NCBI GenBank assembly: GCA_027490575.1
Contig: JAIXXV010000032.1
Location: 13,211 to 77,210, forward strand
DNA from: a bacterium
GTDB lineage: Bacteria > Patescibacteriota > Minisyncoccia > Phycocordibacterales > CAIZLB01
Length of the DNA stretch: 64,000 nt
Direction of reading: 5' to 3'
In this document: piece by piece, positions 43,489 to 63,764 of the stretch
How the letters are laid out: every line of letters begins with the position of its first letter
Numbering within the stretch: the first letter of the stretch is position 1
Translations under genes and position numbers: made by a program
Notes under the pieces: generated by a model
Database searches by the model: none
The model's input: the letters and a program-made list of their open reading frames with translations, nothing else
Told to the model about the DNA's origin: nothing

Positions 43489-43926
43489 TCAGTCGAGGAA
43501 GCCATCTCTAGTAAATAGAGATGGCTTTCGATCTTTTAGGGCTGCTATTATAAGGTTCTTGATATTTTTAAAGTCTAGGTTTGAAATCCTACTTATATTA
43601 TTAACTTGCCTAAGAAATCTCTTTGAGCTCATCATCTTAATCTGTGATATCAGAACAGTATAAGGTTTATTATCAATGTGAATCCTGTAATCAAATATTC
43701 CGAGATTAGTTTTTGAGGACAAAGGTAAAACCCAAGCCATATTTTTGCTAAACTTCCTAAGGATTAATATCGGCCACTCAAAGTTTTGATTTTTTCCATC
43801 TTGTTCATGGCCAACATTCAAACCAATGGAAGACCACCAAATTTCTCTTTCTCTAAAAAAAATCAGGGAGTCATCTCTCTGATTAATTACTGACTTTAAA
43901 TCACCCCAATCTGAAAAATCCTTCAT
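43489..43926 (-). CDS. MazF/PemK-family type II toxin (mRNA interferase), no adjacent antitoxin
   Basis: REREIWWSSIGLNVGHEQDGKNQNF...AWVLPLSSK matches the PemK/MazF core (GDIWxVDFDPxxGxEQxGxRP...VVxPxTS); 24-aa N-terminal extension. Confidence 0.65.
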   Translation of the reverse strand: MKDFSDWGDLKSVINQRDDSLIFFREREIWWSSIGLNVGHEQDGKNQNFEWPILILRKFSKNMAWVLPLSSKTNLGIFDYRIHIDNKPYTVLISQIKMMSSKRFLRQVNNISRISNLDFKNIKNLIIAALKDRKPSLFTRDGFLD

Positions 43927-44817: not shown

Positions 44818-46161
44818 TTAACCGATAATCCCCTTTTTCAACATGTTTTGTCTTTTGAATTCAGCAATTCTATTGTCGATACTTGGTTTGTTGTATTTGT
44901 AGAATGCATAACCAGCGATCGAACTCCACAGTATCATTGCCAATGTTATAACTATCATCTTTGGACCAAAGTCTATACCTGTTGCAGGTACTTGGTTTAG
45001 GAATACTCCAGATACAGGTACACCAGTTACAGGTGTTTGATCTCTGATAACTGTTACGTTAGAAGCTACAGTGTTTGCAAAGATGGTTGTAGCACAAGTA
45101 GCGCTTACACTTTGACCATTTACAAATGCAGTAACACTCGCTGTCTTGTATCCAGGTATGTTGTAAGATCTAGTTAACTGAGCAGAATTTCCGAAAAGTC
45201 CATCAGTTCCTGACCAGTTGTATGAAGTTGCACCCCAGATATTTCCATTTACATACATAGTCCATGTAACGTTTTGGTTTATGAATGCAGTTGCAGGTGT
45301 AGCTACACAGTAAGCTCCGATAGGATTTACAGGTGGTACATAAGTGTCTTGTATAAGAACATTACATGATCTAGTGATTGATTGATTACCAGATGTGATA
45401 GTTACATAAGCTGTCTTGTATCCAAGTGATGCAAATCTTCCCGTAAATGATTGACCTGATGCACTTATACCATCACTTCCTGACCATACGTATGTGTAGT
45501 TTCCAGAACCTCCAGAAGCAGTTGCCATGAAAGTTAGGTTTTGATTAACAAATGCAGTTGAAGGACTAATGATACAGTTACCATTTAGAGTAGGTTCGGA
45601 AGGAGTGTTTGTATTTGAACCACCGCCACCTAGTACAACTAGACTGATGTTGTTGTTGTTTACAGGGTTAAATGTGTTTGAGTTGTTGTTTGTTGCACTA
45701 GCTGTACTGTTGTTTGTGTTAGTGTTTGTATTTCTGTTGGTATTTGTGTTTGTATTAGTATTTGAAGTATATACATACGAAAGCTGAGGGGCAGGTGTAA
45801 ATCCAAAACCTCCTCCACCACCTACATTGTTGTAGACATATCTTTGAGCTGGGGCCGCAACGAATCCTCCACCTACACGGTTTTGAACAGGTTGTACGTA
45901 TCTTTGCGTAGGGGCTGAAAATACAGGGTTTGAATATGTTGTATTCAATCTATATCCTGAAGAAGGACTTGAGTATACAGGGTTAGAGTAAGTTGTATTC
46001 AATCTATACCCAGAACCCGTTGTTCCAACACCTGACAAGCCAGAGCTTGTTTTAGATGCAAAAGTAACTCCTGGAAACAGCGTCACAGAAGAGACCAAAA
46101 TGGCTAGAAATATGAATTTCCCCGCTTTTTGTAGACTTTTTATATTTGTAATTGTTTTCAT
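44818..46161 (-). CDS. secreted repetitive surface protein with a C-terminal VPATG-type sorting-like signal
   Basis: Signal peptide; SGYRLNTTYSNPV x2; (TN)n run; two repeated beta-rich modules (SGGSGNYTYVWSGSDG/GYKTA); C-terminal PVSGVFLNQVPATG + TM + basic tail. Confidence 0.6.
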   Translation of the reverse strand: MKTITNIKSLQKAGKFIFLAILVSSVTLFPGVTFASKTSSGLSGVGTTGSGYRLNTTYSNPVYSSPSSGYRLNTTYSNPVFSAPTQRYVQPVQNRVGGGFVAAPAQRYVYNNVGGGGGFGFTPAPQLSYVYTSNTNTNTNTNRNTNTNTNNSTASATNNNSNTFNPVNNNNISLVVLGGGGSNTNTPSEPTLNGNCIISPSTAFVNQNLTFMATASGGSGNYTYVWSGSDGISASGQSFTGRFASLGYKTAYVTITSGNQSITRSCNVLIQDTYVPPVNPIGAYCVATPATAFINQNVTWTMYVNGNIWGATSYNWSGTDGLFGNSAQLTRSYNIPGYKTASVTAFVNGQSVSATCATTIFANTVASNVTVIRDQTPVTGVPVSGVFLNQVPATGIDFGPKMIVITLAMILWSSIAGYAFYKYNKPSIDNRIAEFKRQNMLKKGIIG

Positions 46162-46250: not shown

Positions 46251-46781
46251 TCACCTTCGTGCATCGGGAGGTGGTTGGTAGAGCGAACCAACCGTCCTGC
46301 CTGCCTGTGGAATCATCTGCGGAGGTCCATTTTGACCCTGAAGGTCACCGGGTGCGTAGATCATGCCAGTGGCATGATCCATGAACCATGGTTTGGAATC
46401 GTCCAGTGTCACCTTACTTTCGCGAGGAGCTCCGTGGGTCCTTTGGAACTCACGGAGTTGCTCGTCGTTGAAGTGATGGACGGTGCCGTCGTCCATAGTG
46501 ACGGTGTGTGTACGCGTAGCATAGCCGAGCAGACGTCTACCGTCTGGCATAGCCTGGCCGACATGATTGTCGGCTGAGCCTTGGACCACTTGTCCATGGC
46601 CCCACTGGTGATTTGGAGGTTGACCTCCGTTTTCTACAGTTTGACCATTGAATGCCATGGGCGCTTGACCCATAACCACCCCAGGTTGTTGGACAACTTG
46701 GCGCCGCTGTGGAACAGCAATGCAAGAGACGAAGCTGATCATGGTGACCAGTGCCAATACTAACAATTTCACTTTTTTCAT
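46251..46781 (-). CDS. hypothetical secreted/lipoprotein, GC-rich
   Basis: Signal peptide MKKVKLLVLALVTMISFVSC; Gly/Gln/Pro-rich mature part; start taken at the internal ATG. Confidence 0.45.
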   Translation of the reverse strand: MKKVKLLVLALVTMISFVSCIAVPQRRQVVQQPGVVMGQAPMAFNGQTVENGGQPPNHQWGHGQVVQGSADNHVGQAMPDGRRLLGYATRTHTVTMDDGTVHHFNDEQLREFQRTHGAPRESKVTLDDSKPWFMDHATGMIYAPGDLQGQNGPPQMIPQAGRTVGSLYQPPPDARR

Positions 46782-46975
46782 GATAATGAACGATTTTAGG
46801 GTTTGCTGAATGTACACTTTCGGTGCTTTACCGTGTGTAGTTGACTAGTATAATAGTATATTATGTCATATTTGTCAATAGTAATAATTGACTTTTATTA
46901 AAAATAGTGATATTAATATAAGCAGACAGATTCATTCTGAAATACCCTCAACCCAAAAATCCAAGACAAAACGAG

Positions 46976-47728
46976 ATGTCAGAAAACATGAAAAGCGCGT
47001 TCCTTACATACATCATGCTAGGTTTTACCAGCTTGATGGCCCAATACAACATCATAGTAGACGCAAGTCTGCAGATGGCCACCCTCTTCCAGGATGGCAA
47101 AATAGTTCAAGGTTTTGCCGAAATACCCATTGCCACCGGCATGCTAGGGCACGAGACCCCGGAGGGTACATGGAGTGTGCTGTCAGCTAAAGCCAGCGAC
47201 CGATCCAACAAATTTGGAGTGAATATGCCTTACTGCTTCAGAACCAACGCGATTGGTGGTGGTATCTGCATGCATGAAGGGCCGGTTTATCCAGGAGCAG
47301 CATCACACGGGTGCATTCGTATTCGTCACGACTTCGCCAAAAATCTTTTTGATAAAGTTGGCGATAACTGGAAATCTATGAAGATTGTAGTGGTTGGGTC
47401 AATTAAGGATTACATCAAGACAAGACTTGGTGGACTGGTGAGCTTTGACAAAGACGGTAGACCTGTAAAGTTTATCAGGGATTCGTCAGGTAGGCTTCCA
47501 GATGAGTTCCTAAAAGCTCTACATGACGGAAGAGTTACGCTCTTCTGCGAGAATAAAAGTGGTACGATTTCATTTGACCAAAATCAATGGTTCATATCGC
47601 TTGAATTTTGGCAAGACAAGAGGTTAAAAGGAGTGACTCTATCAGAGCTACAATCAAGATTTGGCCAAAGGGTTAACCTCACTGAGAACCAAATCAAAGA
47701 ACTTCACAGGAGAGTTGAAAGGTATTAG
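46976..47728 (+). CDS. L,D-transpeptidase (YkuD domain) family protein
   Basis: GHETPEGTW...GGGICMHEGPVYPGAASHGCIRIRHD matches the L,D-TPase catalytic H...SHGC(I/V)R motif. Confidence 0.75.
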   Translation: MSENMKSAFLTYIMLGFTSLMAQYNIIVDASLQMATLFQDGKIVQGFAEIPIATGMLGHETPEGTWSVLSAKASDRSNKFGVNMPYCFRTNAIGGGICMHEGPVYPGAASHGCIRIRHDFAKNLFDKVGDNWKSMKIVVVGSIKDYIKTRLGGLVSFDKDGRPVKFIRDSSGRLPDEFLKALHDGRVTLFCENKSGTISFDQNQWFISLEFWQDKRLKGVTLSELQSRFGQRVNLTENQIKELHRRVERY

Positions 47729-47903: not shown

Positions 47904-48356
47904 CTACCAGAACCCTGGCTGGCACCCGCCACCAATACCACTACGGTCTGGATTCTGGTTGTAGATGTACTGCAGCTGGCCATAAGGATTCTGTGACCCG
48001 ATATGCGGTATAGGTCCACCACCGTGTAGATAGATAGGGTGACCAGATCTGGAGAATCCTCCGAATACCTGACCGCCTCCCCATCCACCAAAGCCTTGGT
48101 TGAAACCTTGGTTGATCCAAGGGTCAGCACAAGCACCGACAGGTGCAAGGCCTACACCGTCAAAGACAGGAAACCCGTCATCACAGATGACTGCACCTCC
48201 TCCGAAGCCATCGTCTAGAACGAGACAACTCGGCAAAGCCAAGCTACACACCAAAGCCATCAAGACAAGCTTGATTGCCTTTAGGAAGCGCACTGACCGC
48301 GAGACCAAGGGTAGCCGAGCTCCAGTGACAACACAACTGACTGATTTGTTTTTCAT
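47904..48356 (-). CDS. hypothetical Gly-rich lipoprotein, GC-rich
   Basis: Signal peptide ending LALPSC (lipobox-like); GFGGGA/GGWGGG repeats; own minus-strand terminator at 47831-47867. Confidence 0.4.
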   Translation of the reverse strand: MKNKSVSCVVTGARLPLVSRSVRFLKAIKLVLMALVCSLALPSCLVLDDGFGGGAVICDDGFPVFDGVGLAPVGACADPWINQGFNQGFGGWGGGQVFGGFSRSGHPIYLHGGGPIPHIGSQNPYGQLQYIYNQNPDRSGIGGGCQPGFW

Positions 48357-48581
48357 ACTGACAACCCGCCTTTCAACCGGGTTCGAGCAAGGTTTTTTAG
48401 ACCCACTCTTTTGGTTTGGTTTTTGATTTCGATTTGATACCAATGTCTGACATTTTCACGCCAAATAAAGTTGGTATATTTCAAGCGAACACTGCCCCTA
48501 AAGAAGAATGCTCGTAACTAACCTGTAAAAATATTGCATTAGTTGAGACTAACTGTCAACCCCAACTTAGCCTGACACCGA

Positions 48582-48979: not shown

Positions 48980-49726
48980 TTACCCCCTAGTCCCAACATA
49001 ATCCGCCTCCACCACATATCTATCATTCTTTGTTCCAAAACTATCACATGTCGATATGGTTAGCATATTTCTTGTTGTATCAAACTTTATCAAAGCTTCG
49101 TTTTTGTCTACCTTATTAACACTTTTTACTTTGTATACAAAAGTAGTACTACCTGATTGCAAAAGTATCTCGTCGCCAGCTCTCACTTTGTGGAGCTCAT
49201 TGAAAACCCTATATGCTTGGTTTTGCACAACTCTAAAACCAGTACTATGCCCGAAGATAAACATATTACCTTTTCCTATAGACCCTGATCCAGGATATCG
49301 CACAGCTCCCTTTTTAAGCTCATTATCAAGTACGGTAATACTAGTTGAGCTAGGATTTTTTACTATAGTGTTTATATCAAGTGAAGGTACTATCAATCTA
49401 TCTGGCACAATGATTTTTCCGTCACCAATACCTGGGCCACTTGTTCCACCAGAACTATTGGCGTCTGAAGATTGAGCAGATGGATTTGTTGAGTTTAGTA
49501 TTCCCAAGGCTGAATGACCCGGTCTATCACCCGCCAAAGGCTCCTGTCCTGAAGTAGGATTATTGAAAAGAGTGTCTACGATGCCGCCATCGGAGCTTTG
49601 TCTAAGTTCACTCGGCAATAAGCCTGTGACAGCCAATAACAAAGCCGATCCTAAAAATACCATGGCAAAAAAACCGATAAATCGGACCTCATTAGTTGAA
49701 AATATATTTTTGAACCATTTTTCCAT
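48980..49726 (-). CDS. sortase (class A/E-like transpeptidase)
   Basis: N-terminal TM anchor; GAVRYPGSGSIGKGNMFIFGHST (His region), LTISTCD (TLxTC catalytic Cys), C-terminal Arg; start at MEKWFKN. Confidence 0.75.
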   Translation of the reverse strand: MEKWFKNIFSTNEVRFIGFFAMVFLGSALLLAVTGLLPSELRQSSDGGIVDTLFNNPTSGQEPLAGDRPGHSALGILNSTNPSAQSSDANSSGGTSGPGIGDGKIIVPDRLIVPSLDINTIVKNPSSTSITVLDNELKKGAVRYPGSGSIGKGNMFIFGHSTGFRVVQNQAYRVFNELHKVRAGDEILLQSGSTTFVYKVKSVNKVDKNEALIKFDTTRNMLTISTCDSFGTKNDRYVVEADYVGTRG

Positions 49727-49873
49727 ATTATTTATATGTATTTTATATGAGCTATGTTTATACAAGTATTTTAAACAAGCGTTTATAAGAGTATTATAGC
49801 CCAACCTTTACCTGTATTATAGCCCGAATCCCAAAGATTGACAATATATCTATATATGATATAATTTATTTAT

Positions 49874-51127
49874 ATGAAAAACTTTATTAAAATCATTATC
49901 ATAGTAGCAATACTGGTTATACTGGTATTTCTAAGTGTTGGTATAGTGCGTATTGTACCTAGAGTAGTGTCTTCCCTAGCCTCAGCTACGGTGTCACTTG
50001 GCTCATTTTTTACTGGTGGTTCAGACAGCAATGCCACTTCAACTTCAAGTAGTGGTAACAGTACTAACAATAATGGTACTCAAACATCTACATCTACAAG
50101 TGGAAATGGTTTTGTAGTGATTAATGGAACATCAACAAATTCTAGCAATGAAGATGATAGATCATTGGTCAATATACTTAGACCAAACAATACTTCAGGG
50201 CAACCTACTCAAGGTTCAAACAATTCAAACACTTCGAATGTAAAGAACTCTGTAAACAATTCTGCAAACGCAGGTACAGGCAACGTCTCTTATGTTGCAA
50301 ATACATGTACTAACGGTCGTGTATCTGATCTTGCCGTGAGAGTGCTTTCTCGTGGTGTTATGAACAAGGCTACAGGTCAATACATAGAGACCAACTCATT
50401 TACATCAGCTGACACTGTCATCGTAAAGTTTATAGCTGAAAACAGAGGAAGCTGTCCTACGGGCACATGGAGTCTAAGAGTAGACATGCCATCACAAAAC
50501 ACAGCTGATAGAGTTAGAAATATAGTAAACGTAGCTAGTCTTCCTGCTGGTTCTACAGTAACAGGTGAAGTTAACTTCACTACACCTGTAGTTGGAAATT
50601 CAAATGTAACTCTAACAGTAACTGATAACTCAGGTAGAGATTCAAATCTTTCAAACAATACAGTACCGACTTCGATTACGACTATTGCTACTAACACAGG
50701 TACAAATCCTGGAACACCTATCACAGGTGATGGAAGACCTGACCTGGCAGTGCGAATACTTAGAATGGGTACACTTGGATTCAATAACCAATTCGTCCCT
50801 ATCGCAAATACTTCATCTAACTTCGGCGGTAACTTCAGAGTTGGTGAAAGAGTTGCAGTACAATTTGAAGTCATTAACCAAGGACAAACACCTACTGGTG
50901 CATGGACATGGAGAGCTGACTCTGTAGCATTTCAAAATGGAAGCTATACAAACAATCAGTATGAAAATTCAATCCCTGCAGGAGGCAGACTTGTATACAC
51001 TATTGGATTTGATAGTCAGACTATAGGTACAAACAATATCTCTGTCACAGCAGATCATTTGAACCAAGTAAATGAGTTCAATGAATCAAACAATATCGCT
51101 GGTGTTAGTTTCAATGTTGGATACTAA
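49874..51127 (+). CDS. membrane-anchored surface protein with two CARDB-like domains
   Basis: N-terminal TM; Ser/Thr/Asn-rich linker; two modules starting (R)PDLAVR and ending E.NE.NN, the CARDB hallmark. Confidence 0.55.
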   Translation: MKNFIKIIIIVAILVILVFLSVGIVRIVPRVVSSLASATVSLGSFFTGGSDSNATSTSSSGNSTNNNGTQTSTSTSGNGFVVINGTSTNSSNEDDRSLVNILRPNNTSGQPTQGSNNSNTSNVKNSVNNSANAGTGNVSYVANTCTNGRVSDLAVRVLSRGVMNKATGQYIETNSFTSADTVIVKFIAENRGSCPTGTWSLRVDMPSQNTADRVRNIVNVASLPAGSTVTGEVNFTTPVVGNSNVTLTVTDNSGRDSNLSNNTVPTSITTIATNTGTNPGTPITGDGRPDLAVRILRMGTLGFNNQFVPIANTSSNFGGNFRVGERVAVQFEVINQGQTPTGAWTWRADSVAFQNGSYTNNQYENSIPAGGRLVYTIGFDSQTIGTNNISVTADHLNQVNEFNESNNIAGVSFNVGY

Positions 51128-61100: not shown

Positions 61101-61147
61101 AACAGATAACAGTTGGTAATTATCAGGTGACAGTTAGCAGTTAGGTG
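61101..61147 (+). repeat. 7-nt periodic CAGNNNN array
   Basis: CAGATAA CAGTTGG TAATTAT CAGGTGA CAGTTAG CAGTTAG overlapping the helicase stop codon region. Confidence 0.55.
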
Positions 61148-62610
61148 CTTATCAAAAAATCAACAACTCTCTGGTCTACTTGTATATCTCTTCTCGTTAT
61201 AGGTTTGGTGAGCTGAATCCCCTCGAGACTTCTAACGCGACTTAGCGCCACATAAGCTTGTCCATGTGCAAAAGTCCCCTTTCCAAAATCTATGATTGCA
61301 TTATCGAACGTTTTACCTTGACTCTTGTGTATAGTAACTGCCCAAGCAAGTTTTACCGGTATTTGTATGTACTTTCCAACAACCTCAGAAGAAACTCTGT
61401 TTTGCTTTGAGTCAAATTCATATCTAACTGATTCCCAACTTTCACTTTCAACTTCCTCGGTCTTGCCATTACGAAGTTGTACATTGATGGAAGTTGAGTT
61501 TAGCTTTTTTACAATACCAAGATCTCCATTGACCCATCTGCCCATAGGATCATTTCTAAGCATCATGACTTGTGCGCCAACTTTCAGCACCAGAGCTTCA
61601 GGCGCTGGTGTAGTTTTTCTATCAAAAGCTCCTTGTACATGACCTTTGTATGTTTTAGCGGCACCATATATTTCAGTTAGCTTTTTGTTATTGATTACCT
61701 CAGCTGATGCATTGGTAGAAACTAGATATATGGCATCACTTGGCATTTTTTTCTTTTTATTTAAACTGCTTTTGCCTGCATTTTTTGAATGAGCGCCAGA
61801 CTTAGTTTTTCCACCAATCCCCTCACTACTATCATTGTCCATATCAATCACTAGCTCATAATCACCTCCGAATTGATAGTCAGACTCTGATTGAAATCCA
61901 CCTGAATCTGACACGGAGTCTTGATTGAAATTTTGTGAAAAATCTAGACAGCACACTGAATTGATTTTATAAAGATCATTTTCATCCATACGACCTGTAC
62001 GAATCCTATCAAGGATAGAGACGAACTCAGTATCACTTTGTCTATAAACTTCTGTAAGCTCAGCTATCTGGAAATTGCCCTTGGGATATGACTTTGAATC
62101 AAAAAAGTATGGGCTCTGATAATGATCTATGAAGACGTACTGTTCATGTGGAGCAACTACCGGAGGCAACTGAAACATGTCTCCAATAGCCACCATTTGT
62201 ACACCACCAAAAAACTCACCAGGCTTTGGACCGTTGAGTCTAAGGAATCTCTCAACACAATCAAAAAGATCTGCACGGACCATAGATATTTCATCTATTA
62301 CAAGTGTGTCTAGCTTTTTGTAAAGCTTAGATAAGGTCTCATCTGAGATAATGCTTATATCTCTATCTATCACACCTATCTTAAACTTAAAGAAGCTGTG
62401 TATGGTCTGACCTTTGATATTTAGTGCTGCTATGCCTGTGGGTGCAACTACGGCTATGTTTTTCTTGGTGGTATCTCGAAAATGTTGCAGCAAAGTAGAT
62501 TTACCAGTACCAGCTCTACCAGTAATGAATATGTTTTGGCTAGAATTTTCAAGCAAATCTAATATATCTTTTGACTCGTCAGATAATTTCATATCTGAAT
62601 AATACTCCAA
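61141..62610 (-). CDS. PIF1/RecD-like superfamily 1 DNA helicase
   Basis: Walker A ITGRAGTGKSTLL, Walker B LVIDEISMV, C-terminal AVTIHKSQG...AYVALSRV (motifs V/VI of the Pif1/RecD/TraA clade); Asp/Ser-rich insertion. Confidence 0.8.
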   Translation of the reverse strand: MEYYSDMKLSDESKDILDLLENSSQNIFITGRAGTGKSTLLQHFRDTTKKNIAVVAPTGIAALNIKGQTIHSFFKFKIGVIDRDISIISDETLSKLYKKLDTLVIDEISMVRADLFDCVERFLRLNGPKPGEFFGGVQMVAIGDMFQLPPVVAPHEQYVFIDHYQSPYFFDSKSYPKGNFQIAELTEVYRQSDTEFVSILDRIRTGRMDENDLYKINSVCCLDFSQNFNQDSVSDSGGFQSESDYQFGGDYELVIDMDNDSSEGIGGKTKSGAHSKNAGKSSLNKKKKMPSDAIYLVSTNASAEVINNKKLTEIYGAAKTYKGHVQGAFDRKTTPAPEALVLKVGAQVMMLRNDPMGRWVNGDLGIVKKLNSTSINVQLRNGKTEEVESESWESVRYEFDSKQNRVSSEVVGKYIQIPVKLAWAVTIHKSQGKTFDNAIIDFGKGTFAHGQAYVALSRVRSLEGIQLTKPITRRDIQVDQRVVDFLIST

Positions 62611-62615
62611 TCAAT

Positions 62616-63764
62616 CTAACCCTGCATCTTCTTTTTTGTCTTTTGTTGTTGCATTAGTTTAAATGCAGTAGCTATGTCTGAAACAGAGGCTTGTGCATTG
62701 GCACTAGATGATACAGTTGACGCATCAGACGCATTTGAGAAAGACACGAGTCTCTGATTTCCAAATGAGTAATATTTATGGAATACAAGTGCACCCAGTA
62801 AACTACTTAGCATTAAGCCCGTAAGCAAGATTGCGCTTTTTACGCCAGGAGTTACTCCTGTTGCAGGAACTTGGTTTAGGAATACACCCGAGACCGGCTG
62901 TCCAGAAACACCAGAAGTGTACTGGTACGTAGGTTGAACATAAGTATAAGTAGTCGGTTGTGTATATACAGGTTGTGTATATGTTTGTTGGTAGTTGTAG
63001 TCGTAAGGATAATAGTATTGATTTGGATTTTGATATTGCCAATTCCAAGTTTGATTTTGCCAAGTATTGTTCCAACTACTATTATTCCAGCCATTATTCC
63101 ATGTATTGTTCCAATTATTATTCCAGTTGTTATTTGTTCCATAACCAACTTGTACAAATAAACTTGCACAAGAAGTATTATTAAATGATGAGCAAATTGT
63201 GTAAGACATTGTACCTAATTGATTACCTGTAACTGTTATCTGGCTACCACTTATATAAGCACTAGCAATACTTGAGTTATTGTTATTTGAAATAAAATAT
63301 CCTCCGCCAGTACCTGAGATATTTACAGATTGAGTTTGCCCCACATTCAGAGTAAGACTTGTCTGACTTAAGCTTATGGTTTGATTATTCCATGTTCCAC
63401 CTGTCACATTGACCTGAAGCGTTGCACAAGGAGCCATAGACGCTTGCGAACATATAGTTAGACTTGATGTTCCTTGAGATAGACCTTGAACTTGCACTAG
63501 TCCACTTGATGATCCTGCACTTACCACGGTACTGTTTGAGTTTGCTGATACGTAGTAGTTACCTGATCCACCTGACACATTTACAGTAACTGTTTGACCT
63601 GAGTTTATATTTATAAATGACTGACTAAGATATATTGGTCCGTAGTAAGGGGTTGACTGTGCACTAGCAAAACCACCTGGCACCAAAAAAGATAGTGCAG
63701 ATAGGCATACTGAAACTGCGAAAATGGTGCTTTTTATAGCTATTTTTTTAGATATATTTGTCAT
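62616..63764 (-). CDS. secreted surface protein with Ig-like repeats, an Asn/Trp-rich repeat region and a C-terminal VPATG-type signal
   Basis: Signal peptide; two homologous beta-rich modules; (WNN)n tract; C-terminal GVSGQPVSGVFLNQVPATG + TM helix + about 50-aa tail. Confidence 0.6.
   Translation of the reverse strand: MTNISKKIAIKSTIFAVSVCLSALSFLVPGGFASAQSTPYYGPIYLSQSFININSGQTVTVNVSGGSGNYYVSANSNSTVVSAGSSSGLVQVQGLSQGTSSLTICSQASMAPCATLQVNVTGGTWNNQTISLSQTSLTLNVGQTQSVNISGTGGGYFISNNNNSSIASAYISGSQITVTGNQLGTMSYTICSSFNNTSCASLFVQVGYGTNNNWNNNWNNTWNNGWNNSSWNNTWQNQTWNWQYQNPNQYYYPYDYNYQQTYTQPVYTQPTTYTYVQPTYQYTSGVSGQPVSGVFLNQVPATGVTPGVKSAILLTGLMLSSLLGALVFHKYYSFGNQRLVSFSNASDASTVSSSANAQASVSDIATAFKLMQQQKTKKKMQG

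Follow-up and report, generated by a model that had tools for sequence, protein, structure and literature searches.

A C-terminal V/I-P-x-T-G cassette and a linked sortase suggest a cell-wall sorting system in Candidatus Paceibacterota

Two surface proteins and a sortase in the 64-kb window

Bacteria of the candidate phyla radiation (CPR/Patescibacteria) account for a large share of bacterial diversity and live attached to other cells, while their envelope biology is almost unknown. The stretch analysed here, 64 kb of contig JAIXXV010000032.1 and referred to as a whole as the window, encodes two surface proteins, termed substrates 1 and 2, and a sortase. Both surface proteins carry the same C-terminal cassette, which consists of an extended V-P-A-T-G motif, a hydrophobic helix and a tail that starts with basic residues. 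Several public metagenome assemblies contain DNA of the window, as does one metagenome-assembled genome at NCBI, and substrate 1 is called identically in public assemblies. The relevant features are as follows.

44818-46161, minus strand: substrate 1, 447 residues, with signal peptide, low-complexity region, two PKD-like repeats and C-terminal cassette
46057-46161, minus strand: predicted Sec signal peptide of substrate 1, residues 1-35, ending in ...PGVTFA ahead of SK
44977-45018, minus strand: extended motif PVSGVFLNQVPATG of substrate 1, with VPATG at 44977-44991 and the putative scissile T-G bond at the end of the pentapeptide
44899-44958, minus strand: membrane helix MIVITLAMILWSSIAGYAFY of substrate 1, preceded by the spacer IDFGPK
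44821-44898, minus strand: cytoplasmic tail KYNKPSIDNRIAEFKRQNMLKKGIIG of substrate 1, with a conserved terminal A-F-K-x-x-N-M-x-K-K-G element
62616-63764, minus strand: substrate 2, 382 residues, with signal peptide, immunoglobulin (Ig)-like/T2SS-T3SS_pil_N-like repeats, linker and C-terminal cassette
62856-62897, minus strand: extended motif PVSGVFLNQVPATG of substrate 2, with VPATG at 62856-62870
62781-62837, minus strand: membrane helix SAILLTGLMLSSLLGALVF of substrate 2, preceded by the spacer VTPGVK
62619-62780, minus strand: cytoplasmic tail of substrate 2, 54 residues, ending in IATAFKLMQQQKTKKKMQG, with the same layout in P0265
48980-49726, minus strand: sortase, 248 residues as called in public assemblies

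When the two substrates were compared by BLASTP, the sole significant region comprised the motif and the helix (23/46 identical residues, E = 9e-11). The passenger parts are otherwise unrelated, with PKD-like repeats in substrate 1 (PKD_4 Pfam match, E 1.5e-4) and T2SS-T3SS_pil_N/Ig-like repeats in substrate 2. The 14-residue stretch PVSGVFLNQVPATG is identical in both proteins and occupies residues 382-395 of substrate 1 and 290-303 of substrate 2. Over the 42 nucleotides that encode it, the two copies display six third-position differences, all of them synonymous, and no non-synonymous difference. This pattern indicates purifying selection on the peptide and not recent copying of the DNA.

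Predicted Sec signal peptides were assigned to both N-termini by inspection only, MKTITNIKSLQKAGKFIFLAILVSSVTLFPGVTFA followed by SK in substrate 1 and MTNISKKIAIKSTIFAVSVCLSALSFLVPGGFASA followed by QS in substrate 2; that of substrate 1 combines a basic n-region and a hydrophobic core with a small-x-small site. Downstream of the G of the motif, both substrates continue with six residues ending in K, a hydrophobic helix of 19-20 residues and basic residues (K-Y-N-K or H-K in the two substrates). Altogether, 52 residues follow the G in substrate 1 and 79 in substrate 2, and the extreme C-termini of both share a conserved element, RIAEFKRQNMLKKGIIG and IATAFKLMQQQKTKKKMQG. A permissive six-frame scan of the 64-kb window, using the pattern [LVIAFMSNQ]-P-x-[TSA]-[GASN] followed by a helix, yielded no P-x-T-G-plus-helix ending beyond those of substrates 1 and 2.

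Both substrates also contain low-complexity linkers. That of substrate 1 (45650-45760) is of the (T-N)n type, as in SNTNTNTNTNRNTNTNTNNSTASATNNNSN, and that of substrate 2 (62990-63130) consists of W/N repeats, NNNWNNNWNNTWNNGWNNSSWNNTWQNQTWNW, and then a stretch rich in Y, Q, T and P. Near its N-terminus, substrate 1 carries a duplicated SGYRLNTTYSNPV[YF]S. A gene for a PIF1/AAA_30-type helicase (61141-62610, minus strand) starts 5 bp past the stop of substrate 2 on the same strand, and this pairing is retained in three independent assemblies.

The gene at 48980-49726 encodes a genuine sortase, as judged by fold and catalytic triad. Upstream, its reading frame remains open as far as a TTG at 49804. 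The protein comprises an N-terminal membrane helix (residues 11-34, nucleotides 49625-49696), a disordered Ser/Gly-rich linker and a catalytic barrel (residues ~110-248). It matches the Pfam model Sortase PF04203 with E = 2e-21 (76.4 bits vs a cut-off of 26.6) and passes the cut-off of TIGR01076 (41.6 vs 39.35). The catalytic residues His160 (49247-49249), Cys227 (49046-49048) and Arg236 (49019-49021) align with the triad of B. anthracis SrtA (2kw8), the best sequence match among solved structures (E 3e-8), and are invariant in 103 homologues. The motif L-T-I-S-T-C is of the TLxTC type with I replacing L, and it reads L-T-[IL]-S-T-C across homologues. In the AlphaFold2 (AF2) model, the N-terminal membrane helix and the disordered linker are followed by a confident barrel, with a predicted local distance difference test (pLDDT) score mostly >90 for residues 110-248. 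A Foldseek search with this model gave 134 PDB matches at E <=1e-3, and all 50 that were listed are sortases. No second sortase was detected in the window with the sortase-family hidden Markov model (HMM).

Placing the enzyme in a known sortase class was attempted and rejected, as neither HMMs nor structure assign one. The NCBIfam class models remained below their cut-offs, namely class D (score 41.8, cut-off 165), SrtD (40.7, 140), class E (35.7, 160), class C (32.2, 160), class GN (22.5, 158) and class F (19.1, 166), and the class A and class B models did not match the protein. Structural neighbours from classes A, C, D and E lie at similar distance (E 1e-10 to 1e-9, 18–26% identity), and the class E structures 5go6 and 9m6n are among the top fold matches.

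Several of these features had been proposed in an initial annotation made from the DNA sequence of the window. The different repeat architectures of the two surface proteins, their identical 14-residue stretch, VPATG in place of LPXTG and the sortase with its TLxTC-like motif all proved correct. The initial annotation had further described both proteins as ending with the motif, a hydrophobic helix and a charged tail; the helix and the charged residues after the motif were recovered, but the tails are not short.

The cassette as a family-wide module

Among homologues of substrate 1, 57 of 78 end with the same three-part cassette. In a search of 1.84 billion representative proteins, a cassette profile built from 32 tails matched 540 protein clusters (clustered at 50% identity) at E <=1e-3 and 178 at E <=1e-10. 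The motif followed by the helix was present in 133 of the 133 newly listed profile matches. Judged by the source names of the homologues, the window comes from an uncultivated, ultra-small bacterium of Candidatus Paceibacterota (Parcubacteria) within the CPR/Patescibacteria.

The logo obtained from 187 tails reads G-T-P-V-S-G-V-[FY]-L-[SN]-Q-[VI]-P-[YADSE]-T-G-[IV]-x4-K-x3-F-x2-G-L-x2-W-S-x-F-x-A-Y...[RK][RK], with L(-7), P, T and G invariant. The regular expression used to collect the tails tolerated T or S at the penultimate motif position and G, A or S at the last, and left the Leu three residues before V/I unconstrained; this Leu was nevertheless found in 187/187 tails, as were T and G. 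MAFFT alignments of whole proteins independently gave L, P, T and G as the sole invariant columns. The first position of the pentapeptide is V in 139 tails (74%), I in 37 (20%) and L in 11 (6%). Residues kept in the helix region are K(+6), F(+10) and W-S(+17/18), along with G-L and A-Y, and the positions after the helix are R/K. Between 29 and 393 residues follow the G (median 57). Most tails end in [KR]-I-x-A-F-K-x-x-N-[ML]-x-K-K-G, and in 23 short tails the F and K of this terminal element are invariant and the N is at least 90% conserved. By appearance a basic amphipathic helix, the element could help to hold the protein more firmly in the membrane.

The passengers of the cassette are mainly PKD/SprB domains (42 of 90 proteins scanned); Ig_3, SpaA_2, T2SS-T3SS_pil_N, Big_2/13, dockerin and fn3 domains occur as well, and DUF11 and Cna_B were found in two large cassette proteins. 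When the passengers were grouped by BLAST, 137 proteins formed one large group and 20 another, and four remained as singletons. P0265, the orthologue of substrate 2, carries the cassette, as do 19 other passengers of the substrate 2 type. Conservation is higher in the cassette than in its passengers. Taken together, the cassette is a modular tag on a limited repertoire of adhesin-like proteins.

A shared C-terminus of this kind might also be a paralogous remnant of domain shuffling between two genes, devoid of any sorting function. The window has only two carriers, and most family passengers fall into two related groups, as would fit such an origin. However, the cassette recurs in 540 clusters, the divergence of its motif is synonymous only, it outlasts its passengers in conservation, and its link to the sortase gene holds across species (see below). 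We therefore regard a functionless remnant as extremely improbable. The search of relatives and the logo had been suggested in the initial annotation, which named absence of the motif from other proteins as the finding that would speak against its proposal; the number of matching clusters contradicts such an absence, and while the first position varies between V, I and L, P-T-G is invariant.

The cassette lies outside all models of Pfam and NCBIfam. With E up to 10 allowed, five representative tails matched none of the NCBIfam/TIGRFAM signal models for PEP-CTERM/exosortase, PGF-CTERM/archaeosortase, GlyGly-CTERM/rhombosortase and QVPTGV SrtB, and neither full-length substrate matched one of them at E up to 0.1. 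A sorting signal has been defined as a motif, a hydrophobic domain and positive residues, together with a signal peptide at the N-terminus (PMC12445088), and both substrates match this tripartite layout (PMC12445088). The hydrophobic segment is followed by positive residues in both, and there is a genetic association with a sortase through gene order and correlated loss. The pentapeptide is V-P-A-T-G and not a literal L-P-x-T-G, and the signal extends beyond the last ~35-40 residues within which sorting signals lie. Thus, the sorting-signal layout assigned at the outset stands, but the cassette departs from the canonical form further than was recognised then, as its helix is conserved and its tail is long, conserved and sometimes a folded domain.

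Gene order, correlated loss and neighbouring genes

For a survey of sortase loci, 185,579 species-representative genomes were scanned with the sortase alignment, which yielded 80 loci, all from Patescibacteria. Open reading frames (ORFs) on the same strand were scored for L-x-x-[VIL]-P-x-T-G plus a helix. Such a cassette ORF was present downstream of the sortase in 47 of 63 loci for which 3 kb or more of downstream sequence was available, and in 41 of these it lies within 4 kb. Two further downstream cassette loci are L066 and L067, where the cassette precedes a long cytoplasmic domain. Upstream of the sortase, a cassette ORF occurred in one of 71 loci, and none was found on the opposite strand. 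This amounts to 44 cassette ORFs in 267 kb of proximal downstream sequence (within 4 kb) vs one in 619 kb upstream (binomial p ~1e-21). In three relatives (40–55% identity) the sortase gene is located upstream of the substrate 1 orthologue on the same strand, directly adjacent in two of them, and in distant relatives the substrate gene begins 43–127 bp past the sortase gene. The 772-kb contig of a close relative encodes a third cassette protein, P0056, alongside its substrate 1 and sortase orthologues. Both P0056 and substrate 2 carry the cassette far from any sortase gene, as would be predicted for one housekeeping enzyme acting in trans.

A group of substrate 1 orthologues (P0060-P0075, loci L088 and L093) ends in ...A-L-F-S-L-Q-N-[VI]-P-W-G-W, followed by a helix and the tail N-[KR]-x-K-I. 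In these proteins L-x-N-V-P is retained and T-G is gone. The sortase and CARDB genes were absent from the gyrB...thrS slot in four of the four T-G-less relatives that were looked up; the clearest case is L093, where the PKD gene directly follows gyrB. Hence, T-G and the sortase gene were lost together in all four. Neither this loss nor the remote position of substrate 2 and P0056 depends on adjacency. The P-W-G-W ending may represent a second, sortase-independent anchoring variant. Cassette family, gene order and correlated loss support the initial suggestion of a lineage-specific sortase-substrate pair with an extended signal.

The residue x of the pentapeptide was also compared with the sequence of the sortase. 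Positions 174, 208, 229, 235 and 237 of the enzyme separate loci with V-P-[ADES]-T-G from those with V-P-Y-T-G (Fisher p 1e-4 to 2e-9), a result that is suggestive only because phylogeny confounds it and the p values are uncorrected. Three of the residues, S229, D235 and Y237, flank the catalytic Cys227/Arg236 and covary with the substrate x residue (A/D/E vs Y).

Two further genes are located next to the sortase or between it and substrate 1.

49874-51127, plus strand: CARDB-domain protein (Pfam CARDB) with an N-terminal membrane anchor, divergent from the sortase
46976-47728, plus strand: YkuD-type L,D-transpeptidase (Pfam YkuD 5e-14), between sortase and substrate 1

The CARDB gene is divergently adjacent to the sortase gene in 45 of the 73 loci with at least 2 kb of upstream sequence, and its product has a conserved N-terminal anchor, ...IVPKALSSLASATVS.... 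The block gyrB-CARDB-sortase-substrate-thrS-dnaE is syntenic in the lineage, with thrS in 49/80 and gyrB in 39/80 loci. A role of the CARDB protein as an acceptor with a conserved Lys was considered and is unsupported, as no Lys is conserved at >=80% in an alignment of 46 homologues.

As the most conserved neighbour of the sortase, and one that is lost along with it, the CARDB gene bears on the possibility that the enzyme is a polymerase or ligase, joining V-P-x-T-G proteins into a pilus-like fibre, or to the CARDB protein, and not to peptidoglycan. Among the pilin subunits that class C sortases process, V-P-D-T-G and other non-Leu motifs have been described (PMC11231552), and some of the passengers contain SpaA_2 or T2SS-T3SS_pil_N domains. 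On the other hand, the structural model reveals no class C lid segment ahead of the barrel, class C provides no better HMM or structural match than classes A, D or E, the 46 CARDB homologues offer no conserved Lys nucleophile, and the presence of one sortase for dispersed substrates agrees with a housekeeping role. A Lys of the pilin-motif type was not seen in the substrates, although no search aimed at one was made. On balance, we consider a polymerase or ligase function very improbable.

The YkuD gene was found in only 3 of 80 sortase loci; it is envelope context and no conserved part of the sortase-substrate system. Between sortase and substrate 1 there are also two small ORFs on the minus strand (46251-46817 and 47904-48443) with lipoprotein-like N-termini (…FVSC… and …LPSC…) and bodies rich in Gly, Pro and Gln. 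They lie in islands with a GC content of 0.50–0.56 vs 0.40 for the window, in which many ORFs overlap on both strands, and homologues occur in at most one of 80 sortase loci. Another small ORF (43489-43926, minus strand), between thrS and the UDG gene, has a weak Pfam match to PemK toxin.

Interpretation and comparison with known systems

We consider it likely that a housekeeping sortase specific to Paceibacterota uses the cassette as its cell-wall sorting signal, recognises an extended V/I-P-x-T-G and displays Ig-like/PKD adhesins covalently. In the proposed mechanism, the precursor would be exported by Sec via its N-terminal signal peptide, and its C-terminal helix and basic/amphipathic cytoplasmic tail would keep it in the membrane. 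The membrane-anchored sortase (48980-49726) would then recognise [VI]-[FY]-L-[SN]-Q-[VI]-P-x-T-G. By analogy to sortase A, from which we infer both cleavage site and acceptor, it would cut between T and G and transfer the Ig-like/PKD ectodomain to the amine of a peptidoglycan precursor, resulting in surface display. One sortase would serve several dispersed substrates, at least two in the window and at least three on the 772-kb contig of the close relative. Our guess for the conserved helix and tail is that they might serve helix-to-helix recognition by the sortase anchor and, in addition, stronger retention. As the sortase anchor is conserved as well (F16, F24, L31, G35 and P38, each at >=90%), helix-to-helix recognition is a reasonable idea.

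Several observations weigh against this interpretation. Spacer, helix and tail, the part that would be discarded after cleavage, are more conserved than in canonical signals, and the tail is long, both in its median and in its range. The LPXTG_anchor model TIGR01167 matched neither substrate, and the best family tail scored 13.0 bits vs a cut-off of 15.9. Synteny of the gyrB...dnaE block implies that the adjacency of sortase and substrate is in part inherited gene order and that the loci are not independent. The correlated loss was established at the level of the syntenic slot, and the covariation with the x residue is subject to the phylogenetic confounding noted above.

The same features favour an uncleaved anchor. 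The proteins would then be ordinary type I membrane proteins whose conserved juxtamembrane strand, helix and tail mediate oligomerisation or contact a cytoplasmic partner, and the sortase, nearby merely by inherited order, would have other targets. The conservation of K, F, G-L, W-S and A-Y in the helix and of the A-F-K-x-x-N-M-x-K-K-G element agrees with this, as do the tails of up to 393 residues, some of which form a folded domain like clamp-loader domains II-III, the synteny of the whole gyrB...dnaE block and the LPXTG_anchor score under the cut-off. Yet P, T and G are invariant at exactly the positions relevant to a sortase in at least 187 diverged sequences, the window offers the sortase no other P-x-T-G-plus-helix protein as a target, loss of T-G goes along with loss of the sortase gene, and passengers such as PKD, SpaA_2, Cna_B and Big are typical of sortase substrates. 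We thus rate an uncleaved anchor as unlikely.

The large cytoplasmic domains of some relatives raise a different point. About 10% of the cassette family carry, beyond the helix, a cytoplasmic domain of 100–390 residues with the conserved core L-E-x-R-A-R-x4-L-I-S-x-D-G-L...[DE]-W-x2-L-N; no Pfam family matches these extensions. An AF2 model of the domain (pLDDT 86) matches clamp-loader domains II-III, that is, AAA+ lid and collar without the ATPase core. A folded domain in this position is unexpected for a throw-away signal and likewise counts against a mere sorting function. The short A-F-K tail was examined as a remnant of the first helix of this larger domain, and this relationship was rejected (hhalign probability 0.15%, E 0.39). 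The domain has no direct bearing on the substrates of the window, and it feeds a reading in which the remnant is functional.

In that reading, the cassette would be a 'split-here' junction. Cleavage by the sortase would part the wall-anchored adhesin from a conserved membrane remnant, consisting of spacer, W-S helix and cytoplasmic part, which would work independently of the displayed protein. The cytoplasmic part could be the A-F-K-x-x-N-M-x-K-K-G helix or, in relatives and according to the model, a domain of 70–190 residues with the clamp-loader II-III fold, and the remnant could report the display of surface proteins or couple it to a cytoplasmic process. As a variant, the sortase could ligate adhesins to the co-conserved CARDB protein and not to peptidoglycan. 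We hold a junction of this kind to be distinctly unlikely.

If the cassette is a sorting signal, as we favour, covalently displayed surface proteins of Paceibacterota should be predictable from sequence by [VI]-[FY]-L-[SN]-Q-[VI]-P-x-T-G followed by K-x3-F-x6-W-S, and such proteins would be candidate host-attachment adhesins. Standard LPXTG models miss them. Sortase and signal form a small, testable enzyme-peptide pair (with peptides such as SGVFLNQVPATGIDFG and SGVFLNQVPATGIDFGPK), and a sortase with possibly orthogonal specificity may be of use for protein-ligation work. The unusually conserved helix and tail raise the question of whether the fragment that sortase cleavage would leave behind is functional.

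A sortase family, fam000526, has been reported from more than half of CPR genomes by Meheust et al. 2019, as presence only and with no substrate signal (PMC6744442); the sortase of the window presumably belongs to this family. Among the papers searched, we found none that links a CPR sortase to a sorting motif. In the literature and curated models searched, the CPR signal, the upstream Leu with its strand, the spacer and helix, and the long conserved tail are undescribed.

The system resembles canonical LPXTG/class A systems (S. aureus and B. anthracis SrtA) in its membrane-anchored sortase with His/Cys/Arg triad and TLxTC-like motif and in the use of one enzyme for several dispersed substrates. 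In contrast to the canonical signal, the first position of the cassette is mostly V or I, with L in only 6%, and an invariant Leu is located three residues upstream within a conserved S-G-V-[FY]-L-[SN]-Q strand. The cassette further differs by a conserved six-residue spacer ending in K, by conserved helix residues, and by a tail of median 57 residues with a conserved terminal element in place of a short Arg/Lys tail.

Sorting signals without the Leu are known from streptococcal pilins, such as VPDTG in S. pneumoniae RrgC (SrtC-3) and QVPTGV in S. pyogenes (SrtC2/SrtB); IPQTG and YPRTG also occur in pneumococcal pilins, and LAXTG is the signal of class E (PMC11231552). Common to the streptococcal pilin signals and the cassette are the Val before Pro, Q-V-P and a dedicated sortase encoded beside the substrate (PMC11231552). 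However, the streptococcal systems are pilus islands with class B or C sortases in Firmicutes, whereas the Paceibacterota system shows no lid, no affinity to class B or C and no pilus island, and QVPTGV, unlike the cassette, has no x residue between P and T. The likeness extends to a few residues only and is probably convergent.

The class E sortases of Actinobacteria are lineage-wide housekeeping enzymes whose signal LAXTG deviates at one position and whose loops are adapted to it (PMC11231552). The deviating residue is P3 Ala in class E vs P4 Val/Ile in the cassette, and for class E neither an extended strand upstream nor a conserved tail has been described. What the Paceibacterota pair has in common with class E is a lineage-wide housekeeping sortase in combination with a signal that departs from LPXTG at a single position.

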